The notes: a model not told the origin generated them from the sequence alone. DNA of 64,000 nt from Chloroflexota bacterium (GCA_023485685.1 JAMCZK010000013.1:442-64441), one strand, 5' to 3'; counted from the first letter of the stretch, positions 4,018-21,406 are shown. Numbers and translations are program-made.

Positions 4018-4053
4018 AACCTACTCGCAATCAATTTCGCCTTAGGAGAAATA

Positions 4054-4667
4054 ATGGTTAGGATCGTGTTTTGGATTTCGACCGGTGTCTTGCTAACTGC
4101 GTGTAGCAACGCTGCCGTTCTGCCTTCACCTGAAGTGTTGGCGCCGACTGGAAACAATGTTAGCGAACCTATTACAATCGTGACTTCTACACCCGTCACC
4201 TTGATTTCCGAACTAACAGCTACCACCACCTACACCGTCCCTGATTTAGGTTATGCCTTTGATTATCCGGTTGCCTGGACCATTTCAGCATTGCCTGATG
4301 TGCCCGAATCTGCGGTGACTATCCATAGCTGGGATCCCGCAATGGCAACCGGTGACCGCCCGCAAAGCGAAGGCATCCCTGAGGGCGGCGAAAAGTTGGA
4401 CATCATCCCTCTGTCAATGTTTGACGTGGATTACGATGAGGCGCTACCTTGGTCCGTGAACAGAATGAGGGGAAGTCGTTCACCGAAGAGAACGTAACAT
4501 TGCCCAGCGGCGCTCCCGGCATCCTTTTCGTGTTCGAGCAAAACGAAGATGTCGGGAGTCGCTGTTTACTCGCCGAAGTTAACCATACTGCCATCCTGGC
4601 TTGCGGATTAGCCTGGAAATTCCAATACTTCGAATCGATTGCCTTTTCGTTACACCCGGCGCAGTAA
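4054..4667 (+). pseudogene. Small lipoprotein gene interrupted by one frameshift (or a local sequence error)
   Basis: ORF 4054-4497 starts with a signal peptide and lipobox (VLLTAC). ORF 4449-4667 in another frame continues as plausible protein (VREQNEGKSFTEENVTLPSGAPGILFVFEQ...). The two ORFs overlap around 4449-4497. Confidence 0.45.
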
Positions 4668-4750
4668 CCCCGCAATGAAGCTTATGGGGCTTTTTCGGCT
4701 GTTTGACAAGTAGCCGCGCCTCAGTTACACTAGTTGTCAGACAACTGAAT

Positions 4751-6136
4751 ATGTCTACTCTGCTTATCCGGCGTGCAACTCTATTAGCCACCTTTGATAA
4801 TCAGCGTCATGAGATTGCCGATGCTGGTCTATTCATTCGTGATGGCTTTATCCAACAAGTTGGCCCATCGGCTGAGCTTCCCAACACAGCCGACGAGGTG
4901 CTGGATTTAAGCGACCACGTCGTTCTCCCGGGTTTAATAAACACTCACCACCACTTTTATCAGACGCTGACCCGGGCAGTACCGGCAGCTCAGAACGCCA
5001 ACCTCTTCAATTGGCTCAAGACCTTGTATCCTATCTGGGCCAGGTTGACGCCCGAAGATATCTTCATCTCCACTCAGACAGCCTTGGCTGAGCTAGCCTT
5101 ATCAGGTTGTACCACCGCCTCAGACCATCTCTATGTCTTCCCAAACGGCTCCCGCTTGGAAGATGAAATCGAAGCAGCCGGCGAAGTAGGTCTGCGCTTG
5201 CATGCATCCCGCGGCTCGATGAGCGTCGGGGAAAGCCAGGGTGGCCTACCGCCAGACAGTGTGGTGGAAGATGAAGACACCATTCTTGCGGATAGCAGCC
5301 GCCTAATTGAAAGCCATCACCATGCCGAAGCAGGCGCGATGACCCAAATCGTGCTGGCTCCCTGTTCGCCTTTCAGCGTCTCGCAGGACTTGATGAAAGA
5401 GACAGCCAAGCTGGCCAGGCAGTATCAAGTTCATTTGCATACCCATTTGGCAGAAACGCAGGACGAAGAGCAATATACGCAGGAACATTTTGGATTGCGC
5501 CCGGTTGCCTGGATGGAGACTCTGGGCTGGCTGGGTGAAGATGTTTGGTATGCGCACTCGGTGCACGTGAACGACGAAGAAATTACCAAATATGCGGAGA
5601 TGGGCTGTGGTGTAGCTCATTGCCCTTCTTCCAATATGCGCCTGGCCTCCGGGATTGCCCCGGTCGCCCAGATGATGACGGCGGGCGTGAAAGTGGGCTT
5701 GGGCGTGGACGGATCCGCCAGCAATGATTCTTCGCACATGCTGGCTGAAGCGCGGCAGACGATGTTGCTTTCTCGGCTGGAGGCAGGATTGCGCGGCGCG
5801 TCCCTTTCGGGCAACGATGCACCCGAGCTGATGACCGCGCGCCAATCGCTGGAATTAGCCACGCGCGGCGGAGCAGGCGTGTTGGGGCGCGAGGACATCG
5901 GCTCGCTTGAAGTGGGGAAGTGCGCGGATTTCTTTGCAGTGAATCTCAACCAGTTGGATTTCGCCGGGGCGTTGCACGATCCCCTGGCAGCGCTGGTGTT
6001 TTGCGCGCCGGCTAAAGCGGATTACACAGTGGTCGGCGGCAAATTTGTCGTAAAGGAGGGCCAAATGCAAACCGTGGAGTTGCCTCGTTTGATGGAAAAA
6101 CACCATCGCGCGGCGGCGCGTTTGCTGGCAAATTAA
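4751..6136 (+). CDS. Metal-dependent amidohydrolase / aminohydrolase of the ATZ-TRZ / SsnA / 8-oxoguanine-deaminase-like branch
   Basis: HxH motif in LPGLINTHHHFYQTLTR, followed by HLHTHLAET, AHSVH and GVDGSASND. ATG 4751 (MSTLLIRRATLL...) is preferred over the upstream TTG 4703. Confidence 0.8.
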   Translation: MSTLLIRRATLLATFDNQRHEIADAGLFIRDGFIQQVGPSAELPNTADEVLDLSDHVVLPGLINTHHHFYQTLTRAVPAAQNANLFNWLKTLYPIWARLTPEDIFISTQTALAELALSGCTTASDHLYVFPNGSRLEDEIEAAGEVGLRLHASRGSMSVGESQGGLPPDSVVEDEDTILADSSRLIESHHHAEAGAMTQIVLAPCSPFSVSQDLMKETAKLARQYQVHLHTHLAETQDEEQYTQEHFGLRPVAWMETLGWLGEDVWYAHSVHVNDEEITKYAEMGCGVAHCPSSNMRLASGIAPVAQMMTAGVKVGLGVDGSASNDSSHMLAEARQTMLLSRLEAGLRGASLSGNDAPELMTARQSLELATRGGAGVLGREDIGSLEVGKCADFFAVNLNQLDFAGALHDPLAALVFCAPAKADYTVVGGKFVVKEGQMQTVELPRLMEKHHRAAARLLAN

Positions 6137-6137
6137 T

Positions 6138-6866
6138 ATGCTGAAAACCGGAATCCTCTCAAATCGTTTGCATTCAGAACTTGGAGAACTGATCGCCAAG
6201 ACAAATCCAGGCGAGCGCCTGCCCACTGAGCCCAAGTTGGCGGAGATGCTGGGTGTTTCGCGGGCGACGTTGCGCGAAGCAATGCGCACCTTCGAGACGC
6301 AGGGATTGATCCAGCGGCGTCAAGGGGTGGGCACGTTTGTGGTGCACCCCTCGAGCGTCATTGATACCGGCCTCGAGTTGCTCGAAAGCATCGAAAGTAT
6401 GGCGCAGCGCGTCGGTTTGCCGGTGCGTATGGGCGACTACGAGATCGAGCGCCGCGCGGCTGATCCTGAGGAACACCAGTTGCTGAAAGACTCTCAGGTG
6501 CTTCATGTTTCGCGCGTGATGGAAGCCGAAGGCCGTCCGATTGCCTATTTGGTGGACGTGTTGCCGGATAAGCTCTTCACTGAAGTCGAGTTTCGGCGTG
6601 AGTTTAGCGGCTCGGTGCTGGACTTGTTGCTCAAACAAAGTAGCTTGCGGGTGACCAGCGCGGATACCGAGATTCACGCGGAAGCCGCCGAAACGAATGA
6701 GGCGCGGGCGCTACATATGCAACGCGGCGACGTGGTGCTGCATTTCAAGTCCACCCTGTTTTCGATGGACGGCTCGGTGATCGATCTCTCCCGCTCGTAT
6801 TTCCTTCCCGGCTATTTCCGCTTCCATGTGATCCGCCGCGTCGAACCGCGGCGCCCAACGAGTTAA
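6138..6866 (+). CDS. GntR family (HutC/FarR-like, UTRA effector domain) transcriptional regulator
   Basis: Winged-HTH segment LPTEPKLAEMLGVSRATLREAMRTFETQGLI plus a ~150-aa C-terminal effector domain. The start lies 1 nt after the upstream stop. Confidence 0.85.
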   Translation: MLKTGILSNRLHSELGELIAKTNPGERLPTEPKLAEMLGVSRATLREAMRTFETQGLIQRRQGVGTFVVHPSSVIDTGLELLESIESMAQRVGLPVRMGDYEIERRAADPEEHQLLKDSQVLHVSRVMEAEGRPIAYLVDVLPDKLFTEVEFRREFSGSVLDLLLKQSSLRVTSADTEIHAEAAETNEARALHMQRGDVVLHFKSTLFSMDGSVIDLSRSYFLPGYFRFHVIRRVEPRRPTS

Positions 6867-6892
6867 TCCTTAATCCCAAACCCACGGAGGTT

Positions 6893-7849
6893 GTGATGCG
6901 CAGTTTTGCAGGACGAGATATTCTCTCTTTGAAAGATTTTGAACGCCAGGAATTTTTCCGCGTCTTTGAGATTGCTGAAGACCTGGAACATTTTGCCCGT
7001 GACCGCCAGAACACGGACTTGCTGAAGGAAAAGACGCTGGTCACCGCGTTCTACCAGCCCAGCACCCGCACACGTCTGGCCCACGAAGCGGCCATGATCC
7101 GTTTAGGCGGACAGGTAACCGGCTTCGCCGATGCCAAGATGACCCGTGCCGGCGATTTTTACCAGGAGTCGATCAAGGACACGGTAAAGATGCTGGAGTT
7201 CTACGGGGACGTGATTGTGATGCGCCATTTTCAGCAAGGGGCCCCGCATGAGGCGGCCAAATGGGCCAGTATCCCCATCATCAATGGTGGTGACGGCTGG
7301 GGCGAGCACCCGACCCAGATCCTGACCGACCTCTACACCGTGTGGAAGGAAAAGGGCACCATCGATGGGCTCAAATGGCTTGCCGTAGGGGATATGCGCA
7401 TGCGCACCATGCACTCCTTGGCTTATGGCCTGACTCAATTCGACTGCCCGATCACCTTCGTGGCGCCCCCAGACATGTCCCTGACCAAAGAGTTCAAGGA
7501 TGAATTAAAGCAGTACAGCCTCAACTATAAGGAAGCGGAACATGTCGAACAGGCCATCGCGGAGGCCGACGTCATTCTGGTGGAGCCGGTAGTGCAGCCA
7601 GATTACACGAAATCCCGCGACGAGCGTTCGGGCGACGTGAATTTGACGCCAGCCAACTACAAGATCACCCGCGAACTGCTATCGACAAAGGCTAAATCGG
7701 ACGCCATCTTGCTGCATTCCCTGCCGCGCATGGACGAGATTCCGCCCGATGTAGACATCACCCGCTGGTCGCGCTATTGGCAGGAAGCCTTTAATGGCGT
7801 AGTCATGCGCATGGCGCTTTTGGCGCTAGTTTTAGGCGCCACTGAATGA
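6893..7849 (+). CDS. Aspartate-carbamoyltransferase-like transcarbamylase, substrate uncertain
   Basis: Carbamoyl-phosphate site motifs STRTR, VMRH and EHPTQ, plus HSLPR in place of HPLPR. The canonical R-x-Q-x-E-R aspartate-binding segment is replaced by EPVVQPDY. Confidence 0.75.
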   Translation: MMRSFAGRDILSLKDFERQEFFRVFEIAEDLEHFARDRQNTDLLKEKTLVTAFYQPSTRTRLAHEAAMIRLGGQVTGFADAKMTRAGDFYQESIKDTVKMLEFYGDVIVMRHFQQGAPHEAAKWASIPIINGGDGWGEHPTQILTDLYTVWKEKGTIDGLKWLAVGDMRMRTMHSLAYGLTQFDCPITFVAPPDMSLTKEFKDELKQYSLNYKEAEHVEQAIAEADVILVEPVVQPDYTKSRDERSGDVNLTPANYKITRELLSTKAKSDAILLHSLPRMDEIPPDVDITRWSRYWQEAFNGVVMRMALLALVLGATE

Positions 7850-7861
7850 ATAATGAAGTTT

Positions 7862-7893
7862 GATAGTCAGGTAGTCGTGTAGTCGGATAGTCA
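7862..7893. repeat. Four tandem 8-nt units with a TAGTC core (left flank of four-helix-bundle cassette 1)
   Basis: Reads gatagtca ggtagtcg tgtagtcg gatagtca. It is the inverted counterpart of the array at 8192-8215. Confidence 0.8.
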
Positions 7894-7895
7894 AA

Positions 7896-8198
7896 ATGCC
7901 AAAGATAGAGCGCTTCGAAGACCTGCAAAGCTGGCAGAAAGCTCGTTTGCTAGTAAATCGGATCTATAAACTTACGCTGAATGGTTCATTTTCAAAAGAC
8001 TTTGCTTTGCGAGATCAGATTCGACGATCCGGTGGATCGGTGATGCACAACATAGCGGAAGGTTTTGACGCCGGTTCAGATCTTGAGTTCGTTCGCTTTC
8101 TTAAAATGGCTCGCCGATCGGCAAGTGAAGTTCAATCCCAGTTATATCTGGCAGTTGATCTCAACTACATCAGTCCTGAAGAAATGAATGTCGACTAA
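7896..8198 (+). CDS. Four-helix-bundle protein (23S rRNA intervening-sequence protein / Avd-like family)
   Basis: 100 aa. FEDLQSWQKARLL...IRRSGGSVMHNIAEGF...FLKMARRSASEVQSQLYLA matches the family signature. The ORF is visibly more AT-rich than its neighbours. Confidence 0.85.
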   Translation: MPKIERFEDLQSWQKARLLVNRIYKLTLNGSFSKDFALRDQIRRSGGSVMHNIAEGFDAGSDLEFVRFLKMARRSASEVQSQLYLAVDLNYISPEEMNVD

Positions 8199-8215
8199 TT
8201 GACTAGGAGACTAAG
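8192..8215. repeat. Three tandem 8-nt units with a GACTA core (right flank of cassette 1; inverted relative to 7862-7893)
   Basis: Reads cgactaat tgactagg agactaag. The Shine-Dalgarno AGGAGA of the next gene is embedded in the array. Confidence 0.75.
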
Positions 8216-8216
8216 C

Positions 8217-9200
8217 ATGCAGACTAACTTACGCGGTCGCGATTTCATTAGCGACCTGGACTTTAGCAAGGAAGAAATCGAAACCGTTTTAGATGTAGCC
8301 TGGGACTTGAAGCGCAAGCGCGCCCTTGGGGAGCCGCACGCTCTTTTACGAGACAAGGTGCTGGCCATGCTCTTTTTCTTTTCGAGCACGCGCACTCGCG
8401 GCTCTTTCGAAGCGGGTATGGCTCAATTGGGCGGGCACGCCGCCTTCATTGAATCTCGCACCACCCAGATTTCACATGGGGATACGGAAAAGGAAATGGG
8501 CCATATCTTCGGCCGATATTTCGATGGCATCGCCATCCGCCACGTGGAGTGGGGTGTGGGCAACCGCTACCTCAATCTGGTGGCAGAAGCCTCCGGGGTG
8601 CCGGTGCTCAACATGCAGTGCGAGATCTACCACCCCCACCAATGCCTGGCCGATCTCATGACCATGATGGAGAAGTTCAGCACTCGCAGCTTGCGCGGCA
8701 AGCGCGTAGTGGTTTCCTGGGCTTACGCCTCCAGCTACCTCAAACCTATTTCAGTTCCCCAATCGCTGATTTTGCAGCTGCCTCGCTTCGGCGCAGACGT
8801 TGTACTTTCCCACCCCAAGGGCTTTGAGTTGATGCCAGAGATCATGGATCAAGCCAAGTCGCTTTCCAAGCGATACAAGACTGGCTTTGATGTGGTCCAC
8901 GACATGAAGGAAGGCTTCGAGGACGCCGACGTGGTGTACGCGAAATCCTGGGGACCGCTACTGACGACTTCGGATGTCGCCAAAGGCAAAGAGTTGCAGG
9001 ACGCCAACAAAGATTGGATCACCGATGCCAAGAAGATGGCCGTTGCACACGACGATGCCATCTACATGCATCCACTTCCCGCGGACCGTGACGTGGAAAT
9101 CACCAGCGAAGTCCTGGACGGTCCACAATCGGTTGTGATCGACGAAGCTGAAAACCGCCTGCACGCGCAAAAGGCCGTGATGGCGTTAACGATGTGCTGA
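8217..9200 (+). CDS. Ornithine/aspartate transcarbamylase-fold enzyme (YgeW/OTCase-like), substrate uncertain
   Basis: Motifs STRTR and HPHQCLADL, MHPLPADRD (HPLP rather than the OTCase HCLP), and KSWG where OTCases have SMG. ATG 8217 follows AGGAGA; the track start at 8199 is less likely. Confidence 0.8.
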   Translation: MQTNLRGRDFISDLDFSKEEIETVLDVAWDLKRKRALGEPHALLRDKVLAMLFFFSSTRTRGSFEAGMAQLGGHAAFIESRTTQISHGDTEKEMGHIFGRYFDGIAIRHVEWGVGNRYLNLVAEASGVPVLNMQCEIYHPHQCLADLMTMMEKFSTRSLRGKRVVVSWAYASSYLKPISVPQSLILQLPRFGADVVLSHPKGFELMPEIMDQAKSLSKRYKTGFDVVHDMKEGFEDADVVYAKSWGPLLTTSDVAKGKELQDANKDWITDAKKMAVAHDDAIYMHPLPADRDVEITSEVLDGPQSVVIDEAENRLHAQKAVMALTMC

Positions 9201-9232
9201 GTACATAAGTAAATAGGTACACTGGTACATAA
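9201..9232. repeat. Four tandem 8-nt units with a GTACA core (left flank of four-helix-bundle cassette 2)
   Basis: Reads gtacataa gtaaatag gtacactg gtacataa. It is the inverted counterpart of the array at 9751-9782. Confidence 0.8.
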
Positions 9233-9243
9233 GGCAGGTTATC

Positions 9244-9747
9244 TTGCATCTTATTCGGGCAAATCATCAACCGTCTGGTGGAGATGGGAATAGCAGCTTT
9301 GAGGATCTGCAATGTTATAAACTTGCTCTTGATGTGATGGTCAACGCTCATCAGCTCGCTGTGAATCTGCCGCCACAAGAGAAATATGACTTGGCTCAGC
9401 AAATCCGAAGGGCTTCGAAAGGGATATCTGCAAATATTGCTGAGGGCTACGGCAGGTTCCATTTTCTAGATTCATTGCGATTCTATTCAATGGCAAGGGG
9501 TTCTTTAAATGAGACGCGAAATCATGTGATCACTGCCAAAGTGCTTGGATACATCGAAGAATCCTTTTATCAACAGTTTGTTACACTCATGCGCGAAGCA
9601 GAAAAGACGCTGAATGGACTCATGCGCTATGTGCGTGAACAACGAAGGGGTGGCGACTTATATAAAAACAGCGTGATCCGCGAGGAAGCCGGCACATATG
9701 AAGCTGAATTCTCTGACTATCTGGACGAACTAAGACCCCACGAATGA
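9244..9747 (+). CDS. Four-helix-bundle protein (23S rRNA intervening-sequence protein / Avd-like family)
   Basis: FEDLQCYKLAL...QIRRASKGISANIAEGYGRF...FYSMARGSLNETRNH matches the family signature. TTG is the only in-frame start. The ORF is AT-rich relative to its neighbours. Confidence 0.8.
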   Translation: MHLIRANHQPSGGDGNSSFEDLQCYKLALDVMVNAHQLAVNLPPQEKYDLAQQIRRASKGISANIAEGYGRFHFLDSLRFYSMARGSLNETRNHVITAKVLGYIEESFYQQFVTLMREAEKTLNGLMRYVREQRRGGDLYKNSVIREEAGTYEAEFSDYLDELRPHE

Positions 9748-9750
9748 CCC

Positions 9751-9782
9751 TTATGTACTTATCTACTTGTGTACTAATCTAC
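9751..9782. repeat. Four tandem 8-nt units with a TGTAC/TCTAC core (right flank of cassette 2)
   Basis: Reads ttatgtac ttatctac ttgtgtac taatctac. The innermost unit is the exact reverse complement of gtacataa at 9225-9232. Confidence 0.8.
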
Positions 9783-9808
9783 TCATCGCCAAAGGAGCTT
9801 CCTTCTAA

Positions 9809-10753
9809 ATGACTACCAAACGCGTCGCTGTTGTTGCCGTGGGGGGCAACGCACTCATAAAAGAAAAGGGAAAGCAGTCGGTCCCCGACCAATTTGCCGC
9901 TGCCAGCGAAACGATGGGATACATCGCCGGCATGATTGTAGAAGGTTGGGATGTGGTCGTCACACACGGGAACGGGCCGCAGGTGGGTTTTATCCTGCGC
10001 CGTTCCGAGTTGTCATCCCATGAATTGCACCCGGTGCCGCTGGACTATTGTGGCGCGGATACCCAAGGGGCGATCGGTTACATGTTCCAGCAATCGCTGC
10101 GCAACGAGTTCAAGAAACGCGGCATGAAAAAACATGCAGTAACGGTGGTGACTCAATGTCTGGTGGATAAGAACGATGATGCCTTCAAGAATCCCACGAA
10201 ACCAATCGGCTCGTTCTTGGATGAAAGCACCGCCAAAGCACGTATGGCTGAAGGGAAACATGTCATGGAAGATGCCGGGCGCGGCTGGCGCGAGGTGGTC
10301 GCCTCACCGATACCACAAGAGATCATCGAAGCCCCCGCCATCAAAAAGCTTATCGAGCATGACTTTACGGTGATCGGAGTGGGTGGGGGAGGCATCCCGG
10401 TTATCGAAGATGATGCTGGGGATTTGGTCGGTACGGCGGCCGTAATCGATAAGGATTTCGCCTCCAGCTTGCTGGCGCGCGAAATTAAGGCGGACCTGCT
10501 GCTGATCTCGACTGCGGTAGAGAAGGTTGCTATCAATTTCAACAAACCCAACCAGAAAAATTTGGATCGGATGACAATTGCTGAGGCCGAGCAATACATC
10601 AAGGAGGGCCACTTTGCCAAAGGCAGCATGCTGCCCAAGGTGCAGGCGGCGATCCTGTTTTTGATGGCTGGCGGAAAACAAGCGTTGATCACCGATCCGC
10701 CGAATATCACCAACGCCTTGAATGGGAAGACTGGAACCTGGATCGTTCCTTAG
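9809..10753 (+). CDS. arcC: Carbamate kinase
   Basis: 314 aa. Motifs VVAVGGNAL, VVTHGNGPQVG and GVGGGGIPV, with overall carbamate-kinase length. Confidence 0.93.
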   Translation: MTTKRVAVVAVGGNALIKEKGKQSVPDQFAAASETMGYIAGMIVEGWDVVVTHGNGPQVGFILRRSELSSHELHPVPLDYCGADTQGAIGYMFQQSLRNEFKKRGMKKHAVTVVTQCLVDKNDDAFKNPTKPIGSFLDESTAKARMAEGKHVMEDAGRGWREVVASPIPQEIIEAPAIKKLIEHDFTVIGVGGGGIPVIEDDAGDLVGTAAVIDKDFASSLLAREIKADLLLISTAVEKVAINFNKPNQKNLDRMTIAEAEQYIKEGHFAKGSMLPKVQAAILFLMAGGKQALITDPPNITNALNGKTGTWIVP

Positions 10754-10837
10754 GATAAAACTTTGGCGAAGGTTGGACTTGCATAAGTCTGGCATCAAAT
10801 TCAAACCTTCGCAAGGTTGGAAGGGATTAGGAGAAAA

Positions 10838-12088
10838 GTGAGCAAGTTCCCGGGATACAAGTGTAGTCAGTGTGGTCAGGAATTCAAACCTGACGAAGTC
10901 ACCTACCTGTGCCCCAATGATGGCGGTGTGCTGGACGTCTTGCTTGACATCGACGTGATCAAGAGGACCACTGGACCTCGTGACATCCAGGCTTCATCCG
11001 ACTTCTCCATTTGGCGTTACTTGCCCTTGTTGCCCGTGGGAGATCCCGGGCATACAGGTACACCTTTGCGTTCAGCTGGCTGGACGCCCGTGTATTCCCC
11101 GCCGGCATTAGCTCGGTCTTTAAACATGGGCCAGCTTTGGATCAAAGATGAAAGCAGCAATCCGACCGCTTCTTTCAAAGATCGCGCCAGCGCCTTGCTG
11201 ATTGCCCGCGCCCAGGAGATCGGCGCCAAGGTGATCGTGACGGCCTCCACAGGTAACGCCGGCGCCGCCCTGGCCGGCATGGCGGCTGCCGCCAGCGCCC
11301 GTGCGGTGATCTTCGCTCCCAAGACCGCCCCGCCTGCCAAGGTGGCTCAATTGCTCATCTTTGGCGCCAGCGTCTTCTTGGTGGACGGGAGTTACGGTGA
11401 CGCCGTGGAACTTTCGCGGCAGGCCGCTGATGAATTCGGCTGGTACTGCCGCAACACCGGCTATAACCCGTTCACGGCAGAGGGAAAGAAAACAGCTGCT
11501 CTGGAAATTTGGGAGCAGGTTATAGCCACACAGAAGCTAGATATCCCACTGTCAGTATTTGTTTCCGTGGGAGATGGCAATATCATTTCTGGGATTCATA
11601 AGGGGTTCAAAGACCTACTCGCCTTGGGCTGGATCGAAAAAGTTCCACGCATTTTTGGAGTGCAAGCCGAGGGTTCGGCCGCCATTGCCAATGCCTTCGA
11701 AGCTGGGAAAGAAAAGATTGAGGCGGTGCAAGCTAAGACGATCGCCGACAGCATTTCTGTGGATTTGCCCAGCGATGGGTTGCGTGCGTTGAGGGCTGCC
11801 ACCCACACTGGCGGGGCTTATATCAAAGTCAGCGACGAGTCGATTTTGAAAGCTATTGCCGACCTGGGTCGTTCTGGGATCTTTGCGGAACCTGCCGGAG
11901 CAGCCGCCTTTGCCGGCCTGCGCAAAGCCCTCGAATCGGGTTTAATCGCATCGGGAGATCCCGTTTTGGTGATTAACACGGGCAGTGGTTTGAAAGACGT
12001 GTCCGCAGCGCGCAAAGCAGCCGGGGAAGCGCCCGTTATCGAGCCCACGTTAGCAGCGCTGAAACGCGTTCTTGAGGTGCAGCATTGA
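10838..12088 (+). CDS. Threonine-synthase-family PLP enzyme with an N-terminal zinc ribbon
   Basis: Zinc ribbon CSQCG...CPNDGG, PLP-lysine motif TASFKDRAS, and glycine loops STGNAGAA and GDGN. GTG 10838 follows GGAGAA; the track TTG 10817 is an alternative start. Confidence 0.78.
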   Translation: MSKFPGYKCSQCGQEFKPDEVTYLCPNDGGVLDVLLDIDVIKRTTGPRDIQASSDFSIWRYLPLLPVGDPGHTGTPLRSAGWTPVYSPPALARSLNMGQLWIKDESSNPTASFKDRASALLIARAQEIGAKVIVTASTGNAGAALAGMAAAASARAVIFAPKTAPPAKVAQLLIFGASVFLVDGSYGDAVELSRQAADEFGWYCRNTGYNPFTAEGKKTAALEIWEQVIATQKLDIPLSVFVSVGDGNIISGIHKGFKDLLALGWIEKVPRIFGVQAEGSAAIANAFEAGKEKIEAVQAKTIADSISVDLPSDGLRALRAATHTGGAYIKVSDESILKAIADLGRSGIFAEPAGAAAFAGLRKALESGLIASGDPVLVINTGSGLKDVSAARKAAGEAPVIEPTLAALKRVLEVQH

Positions 12089-13035
12089 GCAAGCCCCCGG
12101 TTTATTCTGTTGTGGCCCCGGTGTACAACGAAGCCGAAACCATACCAGAATTCATCGCCCGCACTACAGCGGTGATGAAAAAGATGGGAGAACCCTGGGA
12201 GCTGGTCATCGTAGATGATGGTTCCAAGGACCGCACCAGCAAAATCATCCAGCAGCATGCGGCCAAAGACAAGCACATCCACCCTTTGCTGTTCGCGCGC
12301 AATTTTGGACACCAGATCGCGGTGACCGCGGGGATGGATCATGCCCTAGGGCAAGCGGTGATCTTGATCGACGGCGATCTGCAGGATCCCCCCGAAGTGA
12401 TTCCGGAGTTGATCGCCAACTGGCGCGACGGTTATGAAGTGGTGTACGCCGTACGCCGCCAGCGTAAAGGGGAATCCTTCTTCAAACGCTTCACTGCATC
12501 TGCTTTCTATCGGCTGATCAATCGCATTACCGAGATCGACATCCCCCTGGATGCCGGTGATTTCCGTTTGATGGATCGCCGCGTGGTGGACGTGCTCAAC
12601 CAGATGCGAGAGCATCACCGCTTTTTGCGGGGTATGTCTGCCTGGGTGGGTTTCCGCCAAGTCGGTGTTCCTTATGATCGCGCGGCGCGCTTTGCAGGCG
12701 AGACGCATTACACATTAGGGCGCATGATTCGGCTGGCGCTCACCGCCATCACCGGCTTCTCATTCTTTCCACTGCAACTAGCGACTTATCTTGGTTTTAT
12801 TTCCGCAGGAATTGCTTTGCTCGCAATCCCCGTTGTGGTTTATTTACGTTTGGTGGGCAGTGCCGCATTTTTCGGACAGGCGACCACACTGATCGCCGTA
12901 TTGTTCTTTGGCGGCGCACAACTGATCTCCCTTGGCATTTTGGGCGAATATATCGGCCGTCTATACGATGAGGCGCGCGGCCGCCCGCTTTACATCTTGC
13001 GCCAACCCCCTGAAGAACCTAAGAAAGGAAAATAG
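12085..13035 (+). CDS. GT2 polyprenyl-phosphate glycosyltransferase (DPM1/ArnC-like) with two C-terminal TM helices
   Basis: YSVVAPVYNEAETI, VIVDDGSKDRT and DGDLQDPPE (DxD). The TTG start overlaps the stop of the upstream gene (12085-12088). Confidence 0.85.
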   Translation: MSKPPVYSVVAPVYNEAETIPEFIARTTAVMKKMGEPWELVIVDDGSKDRTSKIIQQHAAKDKHIHPLLFARNFGHQIAVTAGMDHALGQAVILIDGDLQDPPEVIPELIANWRDGYEVVYAVRRQRKGESFFKRFTASAFYRLINRITEIDIPLDAGDFRLMDRRVVDVLNQMREHHRFLRGMSAWVGFRQVGVPYDRAARFAGETHYTLGRMIRLALTAITGFSFFPLQLATYLGFISAGIALLAIPVVVYLRLVGSAAFFGQATTLIAVLFFGGAQLISLGILGEYIGRLYDEARGRPLYILRQPPEEPKKGK

Positions 13036-13039
13036 TTGC

Positions 13040-14500
13040 ATGATCGATTTAACCATGATGGAGGAGCGACTCAAGCATGGCGTTGAGCGCGCTCGGCAGC
13101 AAAACATTGTCATCCCAACATATGCCCAACAAAAAGACCCGACGAAAGCCCCCGGCAAGATCAAGGCCGATCTCAAGAACATCGGCTTGTGGGATATCGC
13201 CTCACAGAACTTATTCAGAATTACATGGAAAAATGAGCCGAAAGCCAAAGGTGGCAGTTACGGCGGAGTGAACTACATCGAGTTCCCTTCCAGCCTGACC
13301 GGCGTCCCTGCGCGCATCATCGCCTTAGTAGGCAAATGGTTCCCCACCGGCGCACACAAAGTAGGTGCCGCCTTCAGCTGCCTGGTGCCGCGACTGGTTA
13401 CTGGCCAGTTCGATCCCACTACCCAGAAAGCCGTATGGCCTTCCACCGGCAACTATTGCCGCGGCGGAGCGTATGATTCGGCATTGCTGGCTTGCGAATC
13501 TATTGCCATTTTGCCGGAAGGGATGAGCAAGGAACGTTTTGAGTGGTTGGAAAAAATTGCCGGTGAGACGATCAAAACCCCCGGCAGCGAATCGAACGTG
13601 AAAGAGATCTTCGACAAATGCAAGGAACTGCGTGCTTCCGGCCAGGACTTGATGATCTTCAACCAATTCGAAGAATTCGGCAATTACCTTTGGCACTATG
13701 AGGTAACCGGCCATGCGATGGAAGAGGTTCTGGAGAAGGAACTGGGTAAGGGGACCTATCGCGGCCTGGCTTCGTCTACCGGCTCGGCTGGCACCATCGC
13801 CTGCGGCGATTACATGAAGCAAGTTTTCCCCGCCAGCAAAGTGGCTGCCAGCGAAGCCCTGCAATGCCCCACCTTGCTCGAGAACGGCTTTGGCGCACAT
13901 CGCATCGAGGGCATCGGCGACAAACATGTTCCCTGGATCCACAACCTGAAGAGCACCGATATGGTGGTCGCCATCGACGACAATGCCGTAGTCAATCTGG
14001 CGAGGCTTTTCAATGAGCCAGCCGGGCGCAAGCACTTGGTTAAGAGCGGTGTGCCCGAGGCAATAGTAAACCAACTTGACCTGCTGGGTTTCTCCGGCAT
14101 CAGCAACGTACTCTCCTGCATCAAGATGGCAAAGTATTACGACCTGGGCCCAGACGATGTCTTGCTCACCGTTTTGACCGATTCGATGGAGTTGTATGGC
14201 AGCCGGCTAAAGGAAATGCACGCTGAGGTCGGCGAATATACGGAACTCAATGCCGCAGCCGACCAGGCGCGCTACCTGCTCGGCGAGCGCACCGACAATC
14301 TGTTGGAGTTATCCGAACAAGACCGCCGCCGCATCCACAACCTGAAATACTTTACCTGGGTGGAGCAGCAGGGGAAAACCTACGAAGAGATCCTGGCTCA
14401 GTGGCACGATCCGGATTATTGGACCGGCGTCCAACGCCAGGCGCCTGAAATCGATGCGCTGATCGAGCAGTTCAATGCGCGGGTTGGCCTGCTGAACTAA
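13040..14500 (+). CDS. PLP-dependent enzyme of the tryptophan-synthase-beta / cysteine-synthase fold (PALP family), function unknown
   Basis: Candidate PLP lysine in FPTGAHKVGAA, a STGNYCRGGA loop and STGSAGT. ATG 13040 is preferred; the track start at 12932 would overlap the GT2 gene by 100 nt. Confidence 0.7.
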   Translation: MIDLTMMEERLKHGVERARQQNIVIPTYAQQKDPTKAPGKIKADLKNIGLWDIASQNLFRITWKNEPKAKGGSYGGVNYIEFPSSLTGVPARIIALVGKWFPTGAHKVGAAFSCLVPRLVTGQFDPTTQKAVWPSTGNYCRGGAYDSALLACESIAILPEGMSKERFEWLEKIAGETIKTPGSESNVKEIFDKCKELRASGQDLMIFNQFEEFGNYLWHYEVTGHAMEEVLEKELGKGTYRGLASSTGSAGTIACGDYMKQVFPASKVAASEALQCPTLLENGFGAHRIEGIGDKHVPWIHNLKSTDMVVAIDDNAVVNLARLFNEPAGRKHLVKSGVPEAIVNQLDLLGFSGISNVLSCIKMAKYYDLGPDDVLLTVLTDSMELYGSRLKEMHAEVGEYTELNAAADQARYLLGERTDNLLELSEQDRRRIHNLKYFTWVEQQGKTYEEILAQWHDPDYWTGVQRQAPEIDALIEQFNARVGLLN

Positions 14501-14520
14501 GCACCCCGCTCGTGTACAAT

Positions 14521-14553
14521 AAGCAGGAAGGTTAAAAGCCTTCCTGCTTTTTT
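14521..14553 (+). terminator. Rho-independent terminator closing the 6.9-14.5 kb operon
   Basis: aagcaggaagg-ttaaaag-ccttcctgctt, an 11-bp stem running into a T6 tract. Confidence 0.75.
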
Positions 14554-14560
14554 ATTTCCC

Positions 14561-15142
14561 ATGGTTGACCTGTCTTCACCGAACGATCTGGTTTTAGTGG
14601 CCTTCTTGCCATCACCCAAGGACTTGGAGATCGCTCGCGTTTTGGGTTGGTACCGCATCCCCCTCCGCAGCGCGCCCCGTGTCGTGGCGGTGGATAGGCT
14701 GGCTTTCTACCAGCCGGCAACATTTGGTGACGAACACAAGTGGCGTATCGAATTCGTGGCTCCGGTTACTGGCCATGAATTAACCACACGGGGCCAGCTA
14801 TTCAAGGAGAATTTCGACCATCCGCGGGCAAGGGAAGAGTATTTCAAGCTGCAACTGGGGCCTCTTCAGGCGCTGCCCCAACCGATTCCTGCGGGAGATT
14901 GGAAACGCATCACCTTTTTGTATACAACTGGCGAGCGACTGCTAAGCGCAAAAACAATCGACGACCTTAGCGTGCACGATGAGGAACGCCAGGTGCTGTG
15001 GAAGGCCTTGCGCGAACGCGCCGAAAAAGAGCAGCAATACGGCGCGGATCATCTGCCCGAGTTTCCCTGGGACCCGGAATTGCTGGCATTTTTTGGCATG
15101 CGGGGTTCCGGCGCCCTTTACTTTGGTGACAATACCGAATAG
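14561..15142 (+). CDS. Hypothetical cytoplasmic protein
   Basis: 193-aa ORF with protein-like composition, placed 2 nt before the hydantoinase start. No family recognised. Confidence 0.55.
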   Translation: MVDLSSPNDLVLVAFLPSPKDLEIARVLGWYRIPLRSAPRVVAVDRLAFYQPATFGDEHKWRIEFVAPVTGHELTTRGQLFKENFDHPRAREEYFKLQLGPLQALPQPIPAGDWKRITFLYTTGERLLSAKTIDDLSVHDEERQVLWKALRERAEKEQQYGADHLPEFPWDPELLAFFGMRGSGALYFGDNTE

Positions 15143-15144
15143 CC

Positions 15145-16560
15145 ATGCTGCTCATCAAATCCGGAACCCTGGTAACCCATGAAGGCAGTTTTCGCGCCGA
15201 TCTCTTGATTGACGGGGAACAGATCAGCAAAGTCGGCGCGAGTGTCGACGCCCGGGGCGCTGAAGTGGTGGACGCCAGCGGAAAACTGGTGCTGCCCGGC
15301 GGCGTGGATCCTCATACCCACTTTGATCTAGAGATGTTTAACACCGTGTCCTCCGACGATCATTACACGGGCCACAAGGCTGCCGCCTTTGGCGGCACCA
15401 CTACGGTTTTGGATTTCGTTCCTCAACCAGATAAAGGTTCCCTGAGGTCTGGGGTGGACGCCTGGCATGCGAAAGCGGACCCCAAGGCCGCAGTGGATTG
15501 GGGCTTCCACATGAACATCACACGCCTGGAGGAAAGCGTATTAACTGAAATCCCTGCGTTGCTAGATTTGGGCATCAACACGCTCAAAGTGTTTATGGCA
15601 TATAACGGCCGGTTGCGACTGTCGGATGGAGAAATCTTCCAAGTGATGCAATTGGCGCGGGAGCATGGCATGCTCACCATGCTTCATGCAGAAAATGGCG
15701 ACGTGATCGATCTGCTGGTGGCTCAAGCGTTGACGGCCGGGCATCTTTCCCCGGAATGGCATGCGCGCACGCGCCCAGCCTGGGGCGGCGTGGAAGCTGT
15801 TTTGCGCGCGTGTGCCTTGGCGGCGCAATCCGACGCACGCCTCTACATTGTGCACATGAACAGCGCCGGAGAGCTGGATCAGCTCAATTATGCGCGCCAA
15901 CGGGGCGTGCAGGTGATGGGGGAGACCTGCCCCCAATACCTTTTCTTTAGTGAAGAAGATCTTGCCTGCCCAGATGGCGCCAAATGGATTTGTTCACCGC
16001 CCATGCGCACCAAGGCGGATAACGCCGCCTTGTGGACCGGCCTCTCCACCGATCAATTCCAAACTATCGGCACAGACCATTGCCCCTTTTTCTTCGATGG
16101 AACGCAGCCTATCGAATATGAGGGTAAACCCGTTGCCATTCCAGGCAAGGAACTTGGCGCCGGGAACTTCACCCAGATTCCCAATGGGCTCCCCATGGTT
16201 GGAGACCGCTTGCCGATCCTGTGGACTTATGGCGTGGGCGCCGGCAAACTGACCCCGAAACAATTCGTGGCGCTTACCAGCACCAATCCCGCAAAAATCT
16301 TCGGCTTGTACCCGCGCAAAGGCGCTTTGCAACCGGGCTCTGATGCGGATATCGTCATTTGGGATCCTAACCGGGAAATAACGTACGGACGCCTCCACAA
16401 CCATCACCGTACGGATTACAACCTGTTCGAAGACTGGAAATTGAAAGGTTTCCCGGAGAAAGTGTTTTTGCGCGGACATCTCATCGTCGATGGTGACCGC
16501 TGGCTGGGCAAGGCCGGCATGGGTAATTATTTGCCTCGCGGCGAAGTGCAATTTATTTAG
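15145..16560 (+). CDS. D-hydantoinase / dihydropyrimidinase
   Basis: 471 aa. Motifs LPGGVDPHTHF and GGTTTVLDF, a carboxylated-Lys region TLKVFMAY, then MLHAENGD, IVHMN and GTDHCPF. Confidence 0.9.
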   Translation: MLLIKSGTLVTHEGSFRADLLIDGEQISKVGASVDARGAEVVDASGKLVLPGGVDPHTHFDLEMFNTVSSDDHYTGHKAAAFGGTTTVLDFVPQPDKGSLRSGVDAWHAKADPKAAVDWGFHMNITRLEESVLTEIPALLDLGINTLKVFMAYNGRLRLSDGEIFQVMQLAREHGMLTMLHAENGDVIDLLVAQALTAGHLSPEWHARTRPAWGGVEAVLRACALAAQSDARLYIVHMNSAGELDQLNYARQRGVQVMGETCPQYLFFSEEDLACPDGAKWICSPPMRTKADNAALWTGLSTDQFQTIGTDHCPFFFDGTQPIEYEGKPVAIPGKELGAGNFTQIPNGLPMVGDRLPILWTYGVGAGKLTPKQFVALTSTNPAKIFGLYPRKGALQPGSDADIVIWDPNREITYGRLHNHHRTDYNLFEDWKLKGFPEKVFLRGHLIVDGDRWLGKAGMGNYLPRGEVQFI

Positions 16561-16563
16561 CCG

Positions 16564-18096
16564 ATGTTGCTTTTTCTTCCCTTAATTATTTTTGGGGCCA
16601 CGTTAGTGGCCTTGCTGGCCGGCAATCTATTTCAACGCAACTTCCGTTCGAGTTGGCTGCTCAGTGTGAGCGGCGCCGCGCTTTCCTTCCTTGCCTTGCT
16701 TTTCCTTAGATTGCGCCTTCCGTTATCTTTAAGCTTCTCAGCCTGGTGGGCAGGCGAAGGCTTGTTTTCCTCGTCCAGTTTCCTGCTGGATGGCGTAGCC
16801 TGGCTATTTGCCTATATTCTGAGCGGGCTGGTATTGGCTTTTTTCCTGATCCAGGTCCACGAGGCCGTCAGCCAGCAGTGGCTCACTTGGGCATCTAGCC
16901 TTGCCCTGGCGGCGGCCAGCCTGTTAGCTGTCTTCTCGGGTGATTTGCTCACCTGGGCATTTTTCTGGGTCCTGGTCGACGCCATGGCAACTCTCAGCGT
17001 GTTCAGGCAATTCACGAAACCAGAAGAGCGCATTGCCGCGCTTGCCTTTCTCCCGGCGAACATCTCTGCCACTTTCCTCTTGCTGGCTGCCTGGATTCTT
17101 TCTGCCCCGCCAGGCCAAGTCGCCAATCTCCTAGTATTGTTGAGCGCGGCTTTACGCTTGGGAATATTTGCGCTTCGCCATAGTGGCTCAGGAATCACTA
17201 AGGGTTCCAATCCATCCTTCTCCTTGCGCCTTATTTCAATAACCTCGGTTCTGGTTTTGTTGGCTCGTCCCTTGGCAATAGAAGGGTTTGCGTTGATCGC
17301 CGTGCTGGTCCTCCTTTTGCTCCCTGGGCTGAACAGCGCGGTTCGATTTCTGCAGCCCAAGCAAGGAATGGAAACTACCGGATACTTCGAATATGGATTT
17401 GCTACGCTGGTTTTAGCAGCGGCCAGCTTGGGCCGGCCCACTGCAGCCGTCGCTTTTGGTCTGGCGCTGATGGTCGGCAGGAGTTTATTGCTGCTGGTTC
17501 AAAATGCCGGGCGGTTTCGCTGGCCCGTGATCATCTTGTCTGCATTTTTGCTGAGCAGCTTGCCTTTTAGCCCGACAATTTCTGCTAATGAATTCTACGG
17601 ATCTTCATCGATTGCATTTGCTTTCTTCCCTATCCACGCGACGCTGTTGGCCGGATGGCTGCGCCATGCCAGGGCCCAGGCGCCGGAGGAGGCGCTTGCT
17701 GAACCCTGGATGCGTACGATGAGGATGCTTGGTTTGGTCCTACTGCCGGTGACCGTCCTCCTTTTTGGCTTTGGCCTGGCTCCTTCGTTTTCTACGGAGG
17801 CAACTGATTTTTCCTTCTGGCCTGCGATCGTTGTGCTGATCATTGCTGCGCTGTTTTTCATTGCGAGCGAAAAAACCCGTCCTCCGCAAGTTGTCCCACC
17901 AATATACGCAAGTGCGATAGCCACAATCTTCTCCTTGCGCTGGCTGGAAGCCTCGTTCGTTTGGACGCTCAGGGCGCTTGCCTGGTTATTGAATGTGGTT
18001 AGCCGGGTTCTTGAAGGCCAGGCGGGTGTCCTGTGGGCTTTACTGGTGATCGCTCTTTTGCTGTCGCTGGCTTCTCAATTCGCCCTGGCTGGTTAG
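16564..18096 (+). CDS. Polytopic membrane protein, degenerate NuoL/M/N-MrpA/D antiporter-like
   Basis: 510 aa with about 14 predicted hydrophobic spans. The N-terminal pattern LLDGVAWLF...FSGDLLTWAFFWVLVD resembles the antiporter-subunit TM3-5 region, but the conserved WE glutamate is absent. Starts 3 nt after the hydantoinase stop. Confidence 0.5.
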   Translation: MLLFLPLIIFGATLVALLAGNLFQRNFRSSWLLSVSGAALSFLALLFLRLRLPLSLSFSAWWAGEGLFSSSSFLLDGVAWLFAYILSGLVLAFFLIQVHEAVSQQWLTWASSLALAAASLLAVFSGDLLTWAFFWVLVDAMATLSVFRQFTKPEERIAALAFLPANISATFLLLAAWILSAPPGQVANLLVLLSAALRLGIFALRHSGSGITKGSNPSFSLRLISITSVLVLLARPLAIEGFALIAVLVLLLLPGLNSAVRFLQPKQGMETTGYFEYGFATLVLAAASLGRPTAAVAFGLALMVGRSLLLLVQNAGRFRWPVIILSAFLLSSLPFSPTISANEFYGSSSIAFAFFPIHATLLAGWLRHARAQAPEEALAEPWMRTMRMLGLVLLPVTVLLFGFGLAPSFSTEATDFSFWPAIVVLIIAALFFIASEKTRPPQVVPPIYASAIATIFSLRWLEASFVWTLRALAWLLNVVSRVLEGQAGVLWALLVIALLLSLASQFALAG

Positions 18097-18100
18097 TGAT

Positions 18101-20136: not shown

Positions 20137-20211
20137 AAAGCGATCAGAATCCCCACATGCTATAATCGCTCGACCTATCCCAGATCATAACTTTGGCAGG
20201 TCCGCCAGAAA

Positions 20212-21378: not shown

Positions 21379-21406
21379 ATTCCCACTCGCCCCTATAAAT
21401 AAAATT

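Follow-up and report, generated by a model that had tools for sequence, protein, structure and literature searches.

In a 64,000-nucleotide (nt) stretch of DNA from a Chloroflexota bacterium (GCA_023485685.1; JAMCZK010000013.1:442–64441; hereafter, the window), positions 4703–16560 probably comprise a purine-catabolic operon and an adjoining second unit, which would represent a Chloroflexota version of the lower part of the reductive uric-acid (2,8-dioxopurine) pathway, where energy is conserved. The core of the cluster is a module consisting of a GntR-family regulator, two transcarbamylases (TC1 and TC2), and a carbamate kinase (CK), and it is highly probable that this module belongs to the reductive urate pathway. 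The source is an uncultured Anaerolineae (Chloroflexota) metagenome-assembled genome (MAG) of 1.71 Mb in 56 contigs, estimated to be 76% complete. The pathway itself (2025) and the pairing of a pseudo-aspartate transcarbamylase with ygeW (2013) are already known; in the literature searched, TC1 was assigned no function and the Anaerolineae operon was not described.

In the published pathway, urate is converted to isoxanthine (XdhD), then to a reduced ring (YgfK), to ureidomethylhydantoin (SsnA), and to 2,3-diureidopropionate (HyuA) (bioRxiv 10.1101/2025.05.19.654654; bioRxiv 10.1101/2025.04.24.650524). One ureido group is then lost through YgeW and phosphate and the other through YgeY, and the resulting 2,3-diaminopropionate is converted to pyruvate by YgeX; YgeW coupled with YqeA was found experimentally to yield ATP (same two studies). 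Clusters of SsnA with an F420 enzyme in Chloroflexota were noted in one of them (bioRxiv 10.1101/2025.05.19.654654).

Gene Content of the Cluster

The window genes were identified with Pfam and NCBIfam profile searches and PDB comparisons. Every sizeable open reading frame (ORF) in 4703–16560 lies on the plus strand, with intergenic gaps of −4 to 63 nt. All of the genes listed in the initial annotation, which was made from the sequence by a model, were present where it had placed them; its list lacked two ORFs for PF05635 four-helix-bundle proteins. The features are as follows.

4703–4731, plus strand: promoter-like site, TTGACA-17 nt-TACACT, a consensus match at 10 of 12 positions and the best in 3900–21500
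4732–4746: perfect palindrome AGTTGTCAGACAACT, putative operator, ending 4 nt before the deaminase ATG
4751–6136, plus strand: 8-oxoguanine-deaminase-type amidohydrolase, first gene of the operon (NF006055)
6138–6866, plus strand: GntR/HutC-family regulator with a winged helix-turn-helix and a UTRA effector domain (PF00392, PF07702)
6893–7849, plus strand: TC1, a “pseudo-ATCase” of the HSLP type, derived from aspartate transcarbamylase (ATCase)
7896–8198, plus strand: four-helix-bundle protein (PF05635, TIGR02436), between TC1 and TC2
8217–9200, plus strand: TC2, a compact, putatively YgeW-type (knotted-family) transcarbamylase, similar to ornithine transcarbamylase (OTC), N-acetylornithine transcarbamylase (AOTC), and YgeW
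9244–9747, plus strand: second four-helix-bundle protein (PF05635), between TC2 and CK
9809–10753, plus strand: CK (TIGR00746, NF009007)
10817–12088, plus strand: ThrC-like (threonine-synthase-like) pyridoxal-phosphate (PLP) enzyme with an N-terminal Cys4 ribbon
12085–13035, plus strand: family 2 glycosyltransferase (GT2), polyprenyl-phosphate glycosyltransferase-like (PF00535; PgfS/ArnC-like, below cut-offs)
13037–14500, plus strand: distant CysK/CBS-like fold-type-II PLP enzyme
14521–14549, plus strand: intrinsic-terminator-like hairpin
14561–15142, plus strand: conserved hypothetical protein of 193 amino acids (aa)
15145–16560, plus strand: D-hydantoinase/dihydropyrimidinase, a HyuA-like ring-opening amidohydrolase (TIGR02033)

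Conservation of the Module in Related Genomes

The genomic context of TC1 was mined in related Chloroflexota. A scan for TC1 in one genome per species gave at least 593 matches, and the best 80 loci (numbered L below) were fetched; nearly all of these were from Chloroflexota (Anaerolineae, Caldilineae, Ardenticatenales, and Thermoflexales). The window proteins were mapped onto these loci and all of their ORFs were clustered, and neighbours were counted among the loci with enough flank, i.e., 51 upstream and 45 downstream. Upstream of TC1, the GntR gene preceded it in 44 of the 51 loci, and an 8-oxoguanine-deaminase-type gene was found in 31, a 600-aa adenine deaminase in 26, and YgeY in 10. 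Downstream, TC2 was present in 42 of the 45 loci and CK followed TC1–TC2 in 34; a nucleoside ABC importer of the basic membrane protein (BMP) type occurred in about 24, the ThrC-like enzyme in 21, the CysK-like enzyme in 12, xanthine dehydrogenase (XDH) in 5–6, and the hydantoinase in 4. This gene arrangement is not a product of chance. The representatives of the neighbour clusters passed the curated models for adenine deaminase (TIGR01178, 527 bits against a cut-off of 472), YgeY (TIGR03526, 442 against 321), and SsnA (NF005540, 523 against 444), and XDH subunits and an F420-dependent luciferase-like monooxygenase (LLM) family oxidoreductase (in L046 and L031) were also among the neighbours.

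In three divergent loci, TC1–TC2–CK is surrounded by an almost complete set of pathway genes. The gene order in L046 is F420-LLM, YgeY, TC1, TC2, CK, SsnA, XDH, hydantoinase; in L010 it is XDH, CK, TC1, TC2, ThrC-like, CysK-like, F420:NADPH reductase, XDH, SsnA, deaminase; and in L022 it is XDH, SsnA, TC1, TC2, CK, CysK-like, ThrC-like, XDH FeS and FAD subunits, a YgfK orthologue (38% identical to E. coli YgfK over 1021 residues), deaminase. The initial annotation had compared the gene cluster with the ygeW-hyuA-yqeA-ssnA region of E. coli, and the synteny in relatives such as L046 and L022 upholds this resemblance. The E. coli and clostridial cluster comprises xdhD-ygfM, ygfK, ssnA, hyuA, ygeW, yqeA, ygeY, and ygeX. 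Like it, the Chloroflexota cluster combines a HyuA-type enzyme (37% identity), a YgeW-type enzyme (35%), and a carbamate kinase (49%), and the module in relatives adjoins SsnA, a Mo hydroxylase with YqeB/YqeC, YgeY, and even YgfK. The common logic would be the generation of ATP from a ureido group via carbamoyl phosphate.

The module is also present in the order of Thermoflexus hugenholtzii (L030 and L034), a species that took only adenine and adenosine from its medium (PMC8129789). The MAGs that carry it came from wastewater, sediment, groundwater, and hot-spring samples.

The hydantoinase (15145–16560) passed the dihydropyrimidinase model TIGR02033 (517 bits against a cut-off of 393) and, at 37% identity, was the best match in the MAG to E. 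coli HyuA. Of the 80 loci, about 6 showed linkage of its gene to the module, including L046 and L022, where it lies beside XDH and SsnA. The initial annotation placed it in the cluster; it is indeed present, but it lies behind the terminator and is seldom linked to the module. The TIGR02033 result also suits reductive pyrimidine catabolism, in which a dihydropyrimidinase would open dihydrouracil or dihydrothymine, the transcarbamylases would phosphorolyse N-carbamoyl-β-alanine or N-carbamoyl-β-aminoisobutyrate in the place of β-ureidopropionase, and the deaminase would act on isocytosine- or cytosine-type bases. Isocytosine is a known substrate of the 8-oxoguanine-deaminase family, and N-carbamoyl-β-alanine resembles carbamoyl-aspartate, both of which count in favour of this route. 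Nevertheless, the hydantoinase is linked in only 6 of 80 loci and is separated by a terminator, no dihydropyrimidine dehydrogenase was seen in the loci, and the frequent partners of the module are adenine deaminase, XDH, SsnA, and YgeY. We therefore regard pyrimidine catabolism as very unlikely.

Other Pathway Genes in the MAG and Their Distribution in Anaerolineae

The initial annotation had described the first gene of the cluster as SsnA-like. Instead, the amidohydrolase at 4751–6136 is, by its profile scores, an orthologue of 8-oxoguanine deaminase: it passed NF006055 (8-oxoguanine deaminase) with 685 bits against a cut-off of 532, and matched PDB entries 3hpa with 599 bits and 7ww2 (8-oxoguanine deaminase) with 561 bits. 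SsnA was ruled out for this gene, the SsnA models giving 139–148 bits against cut-offs of 444–455. The SsnA of this genome lies on contig C1 (4772–6214); it scored 452.7 bits with TIGR03314, just below the cut-off of 455.5, and was 63.5% identical to the SsnA of L046, which passes both SsnA models and is located beside TC1–TC2–CK. In C1:2021–6214, SsnA stands in a row with an F420:NADPH reductase gene and with F420 γ-glutamyl ligase-like (F420 biosynthesis), PPOX-class, and nitroreductase-like genes, which were identified by eye except for the type of the reductase. This row is consistent with the proposal of Li et al. that the pathway depends on F420 in Chloroflexota.

Contig C5 encodes XDH Mo and FAD/FeS subunits (66% and 58% identical to the cluster-linked ones) and two selenium-linked maturation proteins, YqeB (TIGR03309, 319 bits against 220) and a YqeC-MocA fusion (TIGR03172, 150 against 73); an XDH FAD subunit and the ABC importer are encoded at the start of contig C49. 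The statement in the initial annotation that no XDH, YgeY, or selenium components are present is therefore correct for the window, but XDH, YqeB, and YqeC/MocA are found on C5 of the same genome. No adenine deaminase was found in the MAG, which at 76% completeness is not proof of absence.

We examined the class distribution in a fixed sample of 250 Anaerolineae genomes (numbered G below), each at least 80% complete; related genomes are not independent, and the counts are descriptive only. TC1 was patchy, occurring in 47 of the 250 genomes (19%), compared with 194 for TC2-like enzymes, 185 for SsnA, 201 for YgeY, 189 for the ThrC-like enzyme, and only 3 for YgeX. The distribution of TC1 was nested in that of TC2, with 46 of the 47 TC1-positive genomes also containing TC2. 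YgeY immediately preceded TC1 in at least 12 of the 47, and SsnA was within 15 kb of TC1 in 7 genomes of three families. In many TC1-negative genomes (e.g., G204, G086, G236, G126, and G213), YgeY, TC2, the ThrC-like enzyme, and SsnA all lay within about 15 kb. Most Anaerolineae thus have the YgeY/YgeW-type/SsnA set without YgeX, for which the ThrC-like enzyme is the obvious candidate stand-in, and about one-fifth add TC1. The replacement of YgeY by TC1 genome-wide was not supported, with YgeY in 35 of the 47 TC1-positive and 166 of the 203 TC1-negative genomes; because YgeY is no rarer in the former, TC1 appears to supplement rather than replace it. As a test, the co-occurrence of SsnA with TC1 was uninformative (43 of 47 TC1-positive and 142 of 203 TC1-negative genomes); with SsnA present in 74% of the class, physical proximity is the one measure that carries information.

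TC1, an HSLP-Type Pseudo-ATCase

In TC1, the carbamoyl-phosphate site is intact (S52, T53, R54, T55, R105, H134, Q137, and L267, with the STRT and HPTQ motifs kept), and the aspartate site is rebuilt, with TRAGDFYQES for KKGE in the 80s loop, HSLPR for HPLPR, and EPVVQPD for TRVQKER. TC1 lacks the HPLP motif as well as K84, R229, and Q231, the residues by which ATCase binds aspartate (E. coli numbering), and these changes are invariant across TC1 orthologues. For the aspartate-site residues, we preferred the gapless alignment of Barba et al.; an alternative MAFFT alignment, with an 8-aa insert and R229K and Q231R, was set aside, as the segment is not conserved in A1SH59 or P0012. Of the two ATCase models, TIGR00670 was passed (256.1 bits, cut-off 236.95) and NF002032 was failed (226 bits, cut-off 263), and the pass is borderline and misleading. 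The best-matching solved ATCase scored 239 bits.

For the ATCase-like TC1, there is a named precedent. Barba et al. (2013; PMC4016543) defined the “pseudo-ATCases,” including one HSLP-type protein, A1SH59, whose gene in Nocardioides sp. JS614 adjoins a ygeW homologue, xdhABC, and hyuA. TC1 was 66% identical to A1SH59 (421 bits over 308 residues; sequence from Additional file 5 of Barba et al.). Both proteins have HSLP, the TRAG(D)FYQES 80s loop, and EPVVQxDY in place of TRVQKER, and both have lost RxQ; both genes adjoin a ygeW homologue, and XDH and HyuA-like genes occur in several TC1 loci. A1SH59 was described as a lone orphan in one actinobacterium with no proposed function, whereas the TC1 family has at least 593 species-level matches, occurs in about 19% of the sampled Anaerolineae, is accompanied by carbamate kinase and a conserved regulator and operator, and changes unusually slowly. 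Membership in the ureidoglycine transcarbamylase (UGTCase) group was rejected: because TC1 is 66% identical to A1SH59 but only 33% identical to the Rubrobacter UGTCase Q1AS69, we consider it an orthologue of the orphan A1SH59, and neither a UGTCase nor PyrB.

The UGTCase Rxyl_2847 of Rubrobacter xylanophilus is nevertheless a close parallel. Like TC1, it is ATCase-derived, has an H(T/S)LP motif, and is encoded beside carbamate kinase in a purine-degradation cluster, and it acts on allantoate, a diureido acid with one carbon fewer than 2,3-diureidopropionate. Unlike TC1, it keeps the AAKEES 80s loop, and its cluster contains uricase and allantoinase, i.e., the oxidative route, whereas the neighbours of TC1 are markers of the reductive route. 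An allantoin/allantoate route of the Rubrobacter type would make TC1 a UGTCase (allantoate + Pi → ureidoglycine + carbamoyl phosphate), with TC2 acting on a second ureide such as oxalurate, the hydantoinase serving as allantoinase, and CK making ATP. This proposal draws on the place of TC1 in the broad pseudo-ATCase assemblage, which includes the experimentally supported UGTCase (PMC4016543), on urate as the product that the deaminase would form, and on a weaker allantoinase score of the hydantoinase (TIGR03178, 226 bits). That score is far below the cut-off of 358, however, and TC1 is less similar to Q1AS69 than to true ATCase and lacks its 80s-loop lysine context. Furthermore, no gene for uricase, 5-hydroxyisourate (HIU) hydrolase, 2-oxo-4-hydroxy-4-carboxy-5-ureidoimidazoline (OHCU) decarboxylase, or allantoinase was seen in the 80 loci, and the recurring neighbours (SsnA, YgfK or F420 LLM, YgeY, and selenium-type XDH) are markers of the reductive pathway. 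These results make the allantoate route improbable.

In a search of 1.8 billion cluster representatives, the TC1 family formed two full-length clusters at 50% identity, beyond which lay a fringe of relatives with 44–50% identity and a common (T/S)R(A/S)GD(F/Y)Y loop. The identity of TC1 was 86–94% across the 80 fetched loci, which were picked as the best TC1 matches, and 68–91% in the unbiased class sample. TC1 was 87–91% identical between genomes whose PyrB proteins were 61–72% identical, and this slow change hints at extra constraints, such as a complex.

TC2 and the Phylogeny of the Transcarbamylases

Relatives begin with MQTNLRGRD, which places the start of TC2 at ATG 8217. TC2 scored below all NCBIfam cut-offs for OTC (246, cut-off 306) and AOTC (246, cut-off 288), and it lacks the ornithine-site motifs DxxxSMG and HCLP of OTC. 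It was the best match of E. coli YgeW in the MAG (35% identity), and the two proteins have the motifs SWAYxxSYxKPxSVPQ, VYxKSWxP, KDW, YMHxLPAD, and NxQC(D/E)I in common. Compared with E. coli YgeW (PDB 3q98), with which it shares these family-specific motifs and a downstream carbamate kinase, TC2 is about 60 residues shorter, lacks the YgeW insertions, and has HPLP instead of HCLP. TC2 probably works like a YgeW-type enzyme, although it falls outside formal membership of the curated family.

The top-scoring PDB match of TC2 was an OTC (190 bits), and the genome paper on T. hugenholtzii assigned the homologous OTC and CK pair of that species to the arginine deiminase pathway (PMC8129789). Under a pathway of this arginine- or agmatine-deiminase type, TC2 would be a catabolic ornithine or putrescine carbamoyltransferase working with CK, and the other genes would be unrelated neighbours. 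Against this stand the YgeW signatures of TC2 together with its lack of DxxxSMG and HCLP, the purine-related character of the whole regulon, the separate ArgI-type genes of relatives, and the fact that no arginine or agmatine deiminase was found in the window or the loci; we consider this explanation highly unlikely.

The initial annotation had read both transcarbamylases as catabolic, and they clustered with neither PyrB nor ArgF. We constructed a maximum-likelihood tree with E. coli PyrB, ArgI, and YgeW (the sole YgeW reference) and the in-genome paralogues; the putrescine, N-acetylornithine, and N-succinylornithine transcarbamylases and the other pseudo-ATCase groups were compared outside the tree by profile and PDB scores and pairwise identity. 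TC1 formed its own clade with a long stem beside the PyrB clade (Shimodaira–Hasegawa-like approximate likelihood ratio test [SH-aLRT], 99), and the TC2 clade (97) joined E. coli YgeW (82), apart from the ArgI/ArgF clades. A third transcarbamylase, the true PyrB, is encoded in a pyrC-pyrB-pyrF/E-pyrD operon on contig C26 (3644–8245). Each of five larger relatives has 4–5 transcarbamylases, so TC1 and TC2 are additional to PyrB and ArgF. A biosynthetic identity of TC1 and TC2 was rejected on the basis of the tree, the separate pyr operon, and how many transcarbamylases the relatives have. In the true PyrB of these Anaerolineae (C26; relatives L093 and L097), STRTS replaces the usual STRTR; pyrF and pyrE are fused in one ORF, and a Mo enzyme similar to carbon monoxide dehydrogenase (CODH) group 5 (906 bits, cut-off 950) is encoded just upstream of the pyr operon.

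Proposed Route and Energy Yield

The substrates of all of the enzymes are predicted from sequence and gene context. A HutC-type GntR repressor at the palindrome 4732–4746 would gate the operon, and the 8-oxoguanine-type deaminase would funnel guanine-type bases to urate or xanthine. Urate reduction and opening of the pyrimidine ring would be performed by enzymes encoded elsewhere, i.e., the XDH-type Mo hydroxylase with YqeB/YqeC on C5 and SsnA beside the F420:NADPH reductase on C1. The HyuA-like hydantoinase would open the hydantoin ring to form 2,3-diureidopropionate, and TC2 and TC1 would each phosphorolyse one of its two ureido groups. CK (TIGR00746, 381 bits against 358; NF009007, 412 against 266; 49% identical to E. 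coli YqeA) would use each carbamoyl phosphate to form ATP, with a maximum of two per purine, compared with one in E. coli, where YgeY hydrolyses the second ureido group. Finally, the role of YgeX, in which 2,3-diaminopropionate is broken down to pyruvate and ammonia, may fall to the ThrC-like and/or CysK-like PLP enzymes.

Relative to the E. coli and clostridial cluster, this arrangement differs in having a second, ATCase-derived transcarbamylase beside the YgeW-type one and ThrC-like and CysK-like PLP enzymes in the place of YgeX. In addition, most Chloroflexota probably use an F420-dependent reductase, the first genes of the operon encode an 8-oxoguanine-type deaminase and a HutC-type regulator instead of the sigma-54 activator YgeV, and the upper pathway of this MAG is on other contigs.

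ATCase carbamoylates amino acids whose side chain is short and polar, at the α-amino group, and enzymes of the OTC/YgeW type carbamoylate a distal amine. On the simplest reading of this difference, TC1 might take the 2-ureido group (the amine product being albizziin or diaminopropionate) and TC2 the 3-ureido group, with both carbamoyl phosphates passing to CK; within our confidence in the pathway itself, we put this division at slightly less than an even chance. A broader joint proposal is doubtful: TC1, TC2, and CK would phosphorolyse both ureido groups and double the substrate-level ATP, the slow change of TC1 would reflect a tight channelling complex for labile carbamoyl phosphate, and the ThrC-like enzyme would be a new non-orthologous replacement of YgeX across Anaerolineae.

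Several results weigh against the assignment to the reductive urate pathway. The two bioRxiv studies differ on which ureido group YgeW removes, and owing to this disagreement the division of labour between TC1 and TC2 is not assignable from the literature. TC2 fails the curated YgeW models (TIGR03316, 189 bits, cut-off 500; NF005538, 195.5 bits, cut-off 453), and its grouping with YgeW (SH-aLRT 82) rests on a long branch. With YgeY equally common in TC1-positive genomes, three enzymes would compete for two ureido groups, and since SsnA, YgeY, and the ThrC-like enzyme occur in about 75–80% of Anaerolineae, their co-occurrence with TC1 is by itself weakly informative. In the 76%-complete MAG, no isoxanthine reductase (YgfK, UacX, or F420 LLM), YgeY, or YgeX was found. 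The hydantoinase gene follows a terminator, has no operator, and is seldom linked to the module, and the model does not account for the GT2 encoded between the two PLP enzymes.

The PLP enzymes and the GT2 would find a role if the cluster were anabolic. In that case, CK would feed carbamoyl phosphate to two carbamoyltransferases building a ureido amino acid or a carbamoylated envelope component, the PLP enzymes would make the diamino-acid acceptor (as do those of the SbnA and VioB type), and the GT2 would attach it. OTC-family enzymes carbamoylate 2,3-diaminopropionate in the biosynthesis of zwittermicin and viomycin (PMC4581275), the CysK-like and GT2 genes are embedded in the operon, and TC1 evolves more slowly than the PyrB of the same genomes. 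However, the HutC-type repressor, the purine deaminases, the nucleoside importer, and the linkage to XDH, SsnA, YgeY, and YgfK point to catabolism, no nonribosomal peptide synthetase or other biosynthetic genes were found, and TC1 is present in a patchy 19% of genomes. An anabolic cluster is thus most improbable.

Putative Operator, Regulon, and Transcription Units

The promoter-like site at 4703–4731 implies that the deaminase starts at ATG 4751 and not at TTG 4703. The core of the adjacent palindrome, GTTGTCNGACAAC, has a single exact match in the 64-kb window. The related loci were scanned for the motif (G/T)TTGTC(A/T)GACAA(C/T) with up to 2 mismatches, and about 38 instances were found directly upstream of a deaminase gene. 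The motif was also upstream of GntR in 9 loci in which the deaminase is absent from that position, upstream of the CysK-like gene in 3 loci (L007, L018, and L070), and upstream of an ABC transporter binding-protein gene in 1 locus. This phylogenetically conserved motif joins the deaminase, GntR, CysK-like, and transporter genes in one regulon, and the HutC-type GntR regulator is the putative binder of the palindrome at 4732–4746.

The terminator that the initial annotation had noted lies at 14521–14549 and is strong, with a 13-pair stem that includes 6 GC pairs, a 3-nt loop, and a T run, TTTTATTT. It divides the gene row into two transcription units, with the hydantoinase in the second.

Other Genes of the Cluster and Its Surroundings

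The ThrC-like enzyme (10817–12088) scored at or near the threshold of the ThrC models and 180 bits with PDB ThrC; the MAG also has more distant ThrC-type matches on C25 and C46. Its orthologues (50–67% identity) are often 3–8 kb from YgeY, TC2, and SsnA in Anaerolineae genomes. An in-frame TGA in the ThrC-like matches of relatives was rejected as selenocysteine, as it lies upstream of the true start codon. In L102, L103, and L107 (G123, G083, and G040), which belong to the same taxonomic order as the source MAG, the ThrC-like gene comes just after an ORF whose C-terminus resembles an XDH Mo subunit, as judged by eye, and the flagged TGA falls in the spacer between them.

The CysK-like enzyme (13037–14500) has a C-terminal extension of about 130 aa, and its best PDB match scored 61 bits. 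Its gene was found in 22–24 of the 80 loci and lies between CK and SsnA/XDH in L010 and L022. The GT2 gene overlaps the ThrC-like gene by 4 nt and is followed by the CysK-like gene after 1 nt, so that it is translationally coupled on both sides, and 12–13 relatives have a GT2 in the same slot between the PLP genes. Other relatives (L074:15604–17637, with homologues in L070 and L083) encode a 677-aa polytopic membrane protein with no family match between CK and the transporter genes. Genes of an envelope type recur in this way within the purine operon.

The hypothetical-protein gene (14561–15142) is coupled to the hydantoinase gene and has orthologues in 5–6 relatives. Its product had no Pfam or NCBIfam match, and a relaxed-threshold Pfam search of the hypothetical and membrane proteins gave nothing usable. 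Its AlphaFold2 model (pLDDT 82) gave weak matches to PUA-like (ASCH/YTH/EVE) domains (TM-score 0.3–0.5, best E-value 4e-3), a class that binds modified bases.

The slot of the four-helix-bundle ORF at 7896–8198 is filled in about 10 of 80 relatives, and that of 9244–9747 in only a few. With both slots empty in most relatives, these ORFs are probably hitch-hiking, mobile-like cassettes. The 1.7-Mb MAG has 11 copies of PF05635 (“23S rRNA intervening sequence protein”) genes, those outside the window being on contigs C14, C44, C52, C8, C11, C29, C48, and C36.

Beyond the cluster, 16564–20136 contains three hydrophobic ORFs of 510, 198, and 480 aa, the first starting 3 nt after the hydantoinase stop codon; of these, the 480-aa ORF alone had a weak Proton_antipo_M match. 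On the minus strand, 21407–23002 encodes a 531-aa Amidohydro_3 (PF07969) protein, a member of a broad family that also includes UacY, the ureido-hydrolase of the clostridial urate pathway.

Implications

Because TC1 orthologues pass the ATCase model TIGR00670, they will be labelled PyrB by annotation pipelines, and at least one genome paper has already interpreted TC2 with CK as an arginine deiminase pathway. For the family of HSLP-type pseudo-ATCases, of which one protein has been known since 2013, there is now a concrete substrate hypothesis. In the reading proposed here, TC1 and TC2 would divide the two ureido groups, which bears on the published dispute as to which of these groups is the target of YgeW-type enzymes. 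The solution of the anaerobic urate pathway dates only from 2025 and concerned gut bacteria alone; our results suggest that the pathway, in a modified form, is widespread among environmental Chloroflexota. A two-ATP variant, if real, would be relevant to the engineering of urate-degrading probiotics and to the harvest of energy from nucleic-acid debris by fermenters in anoxic sediments and digesters.

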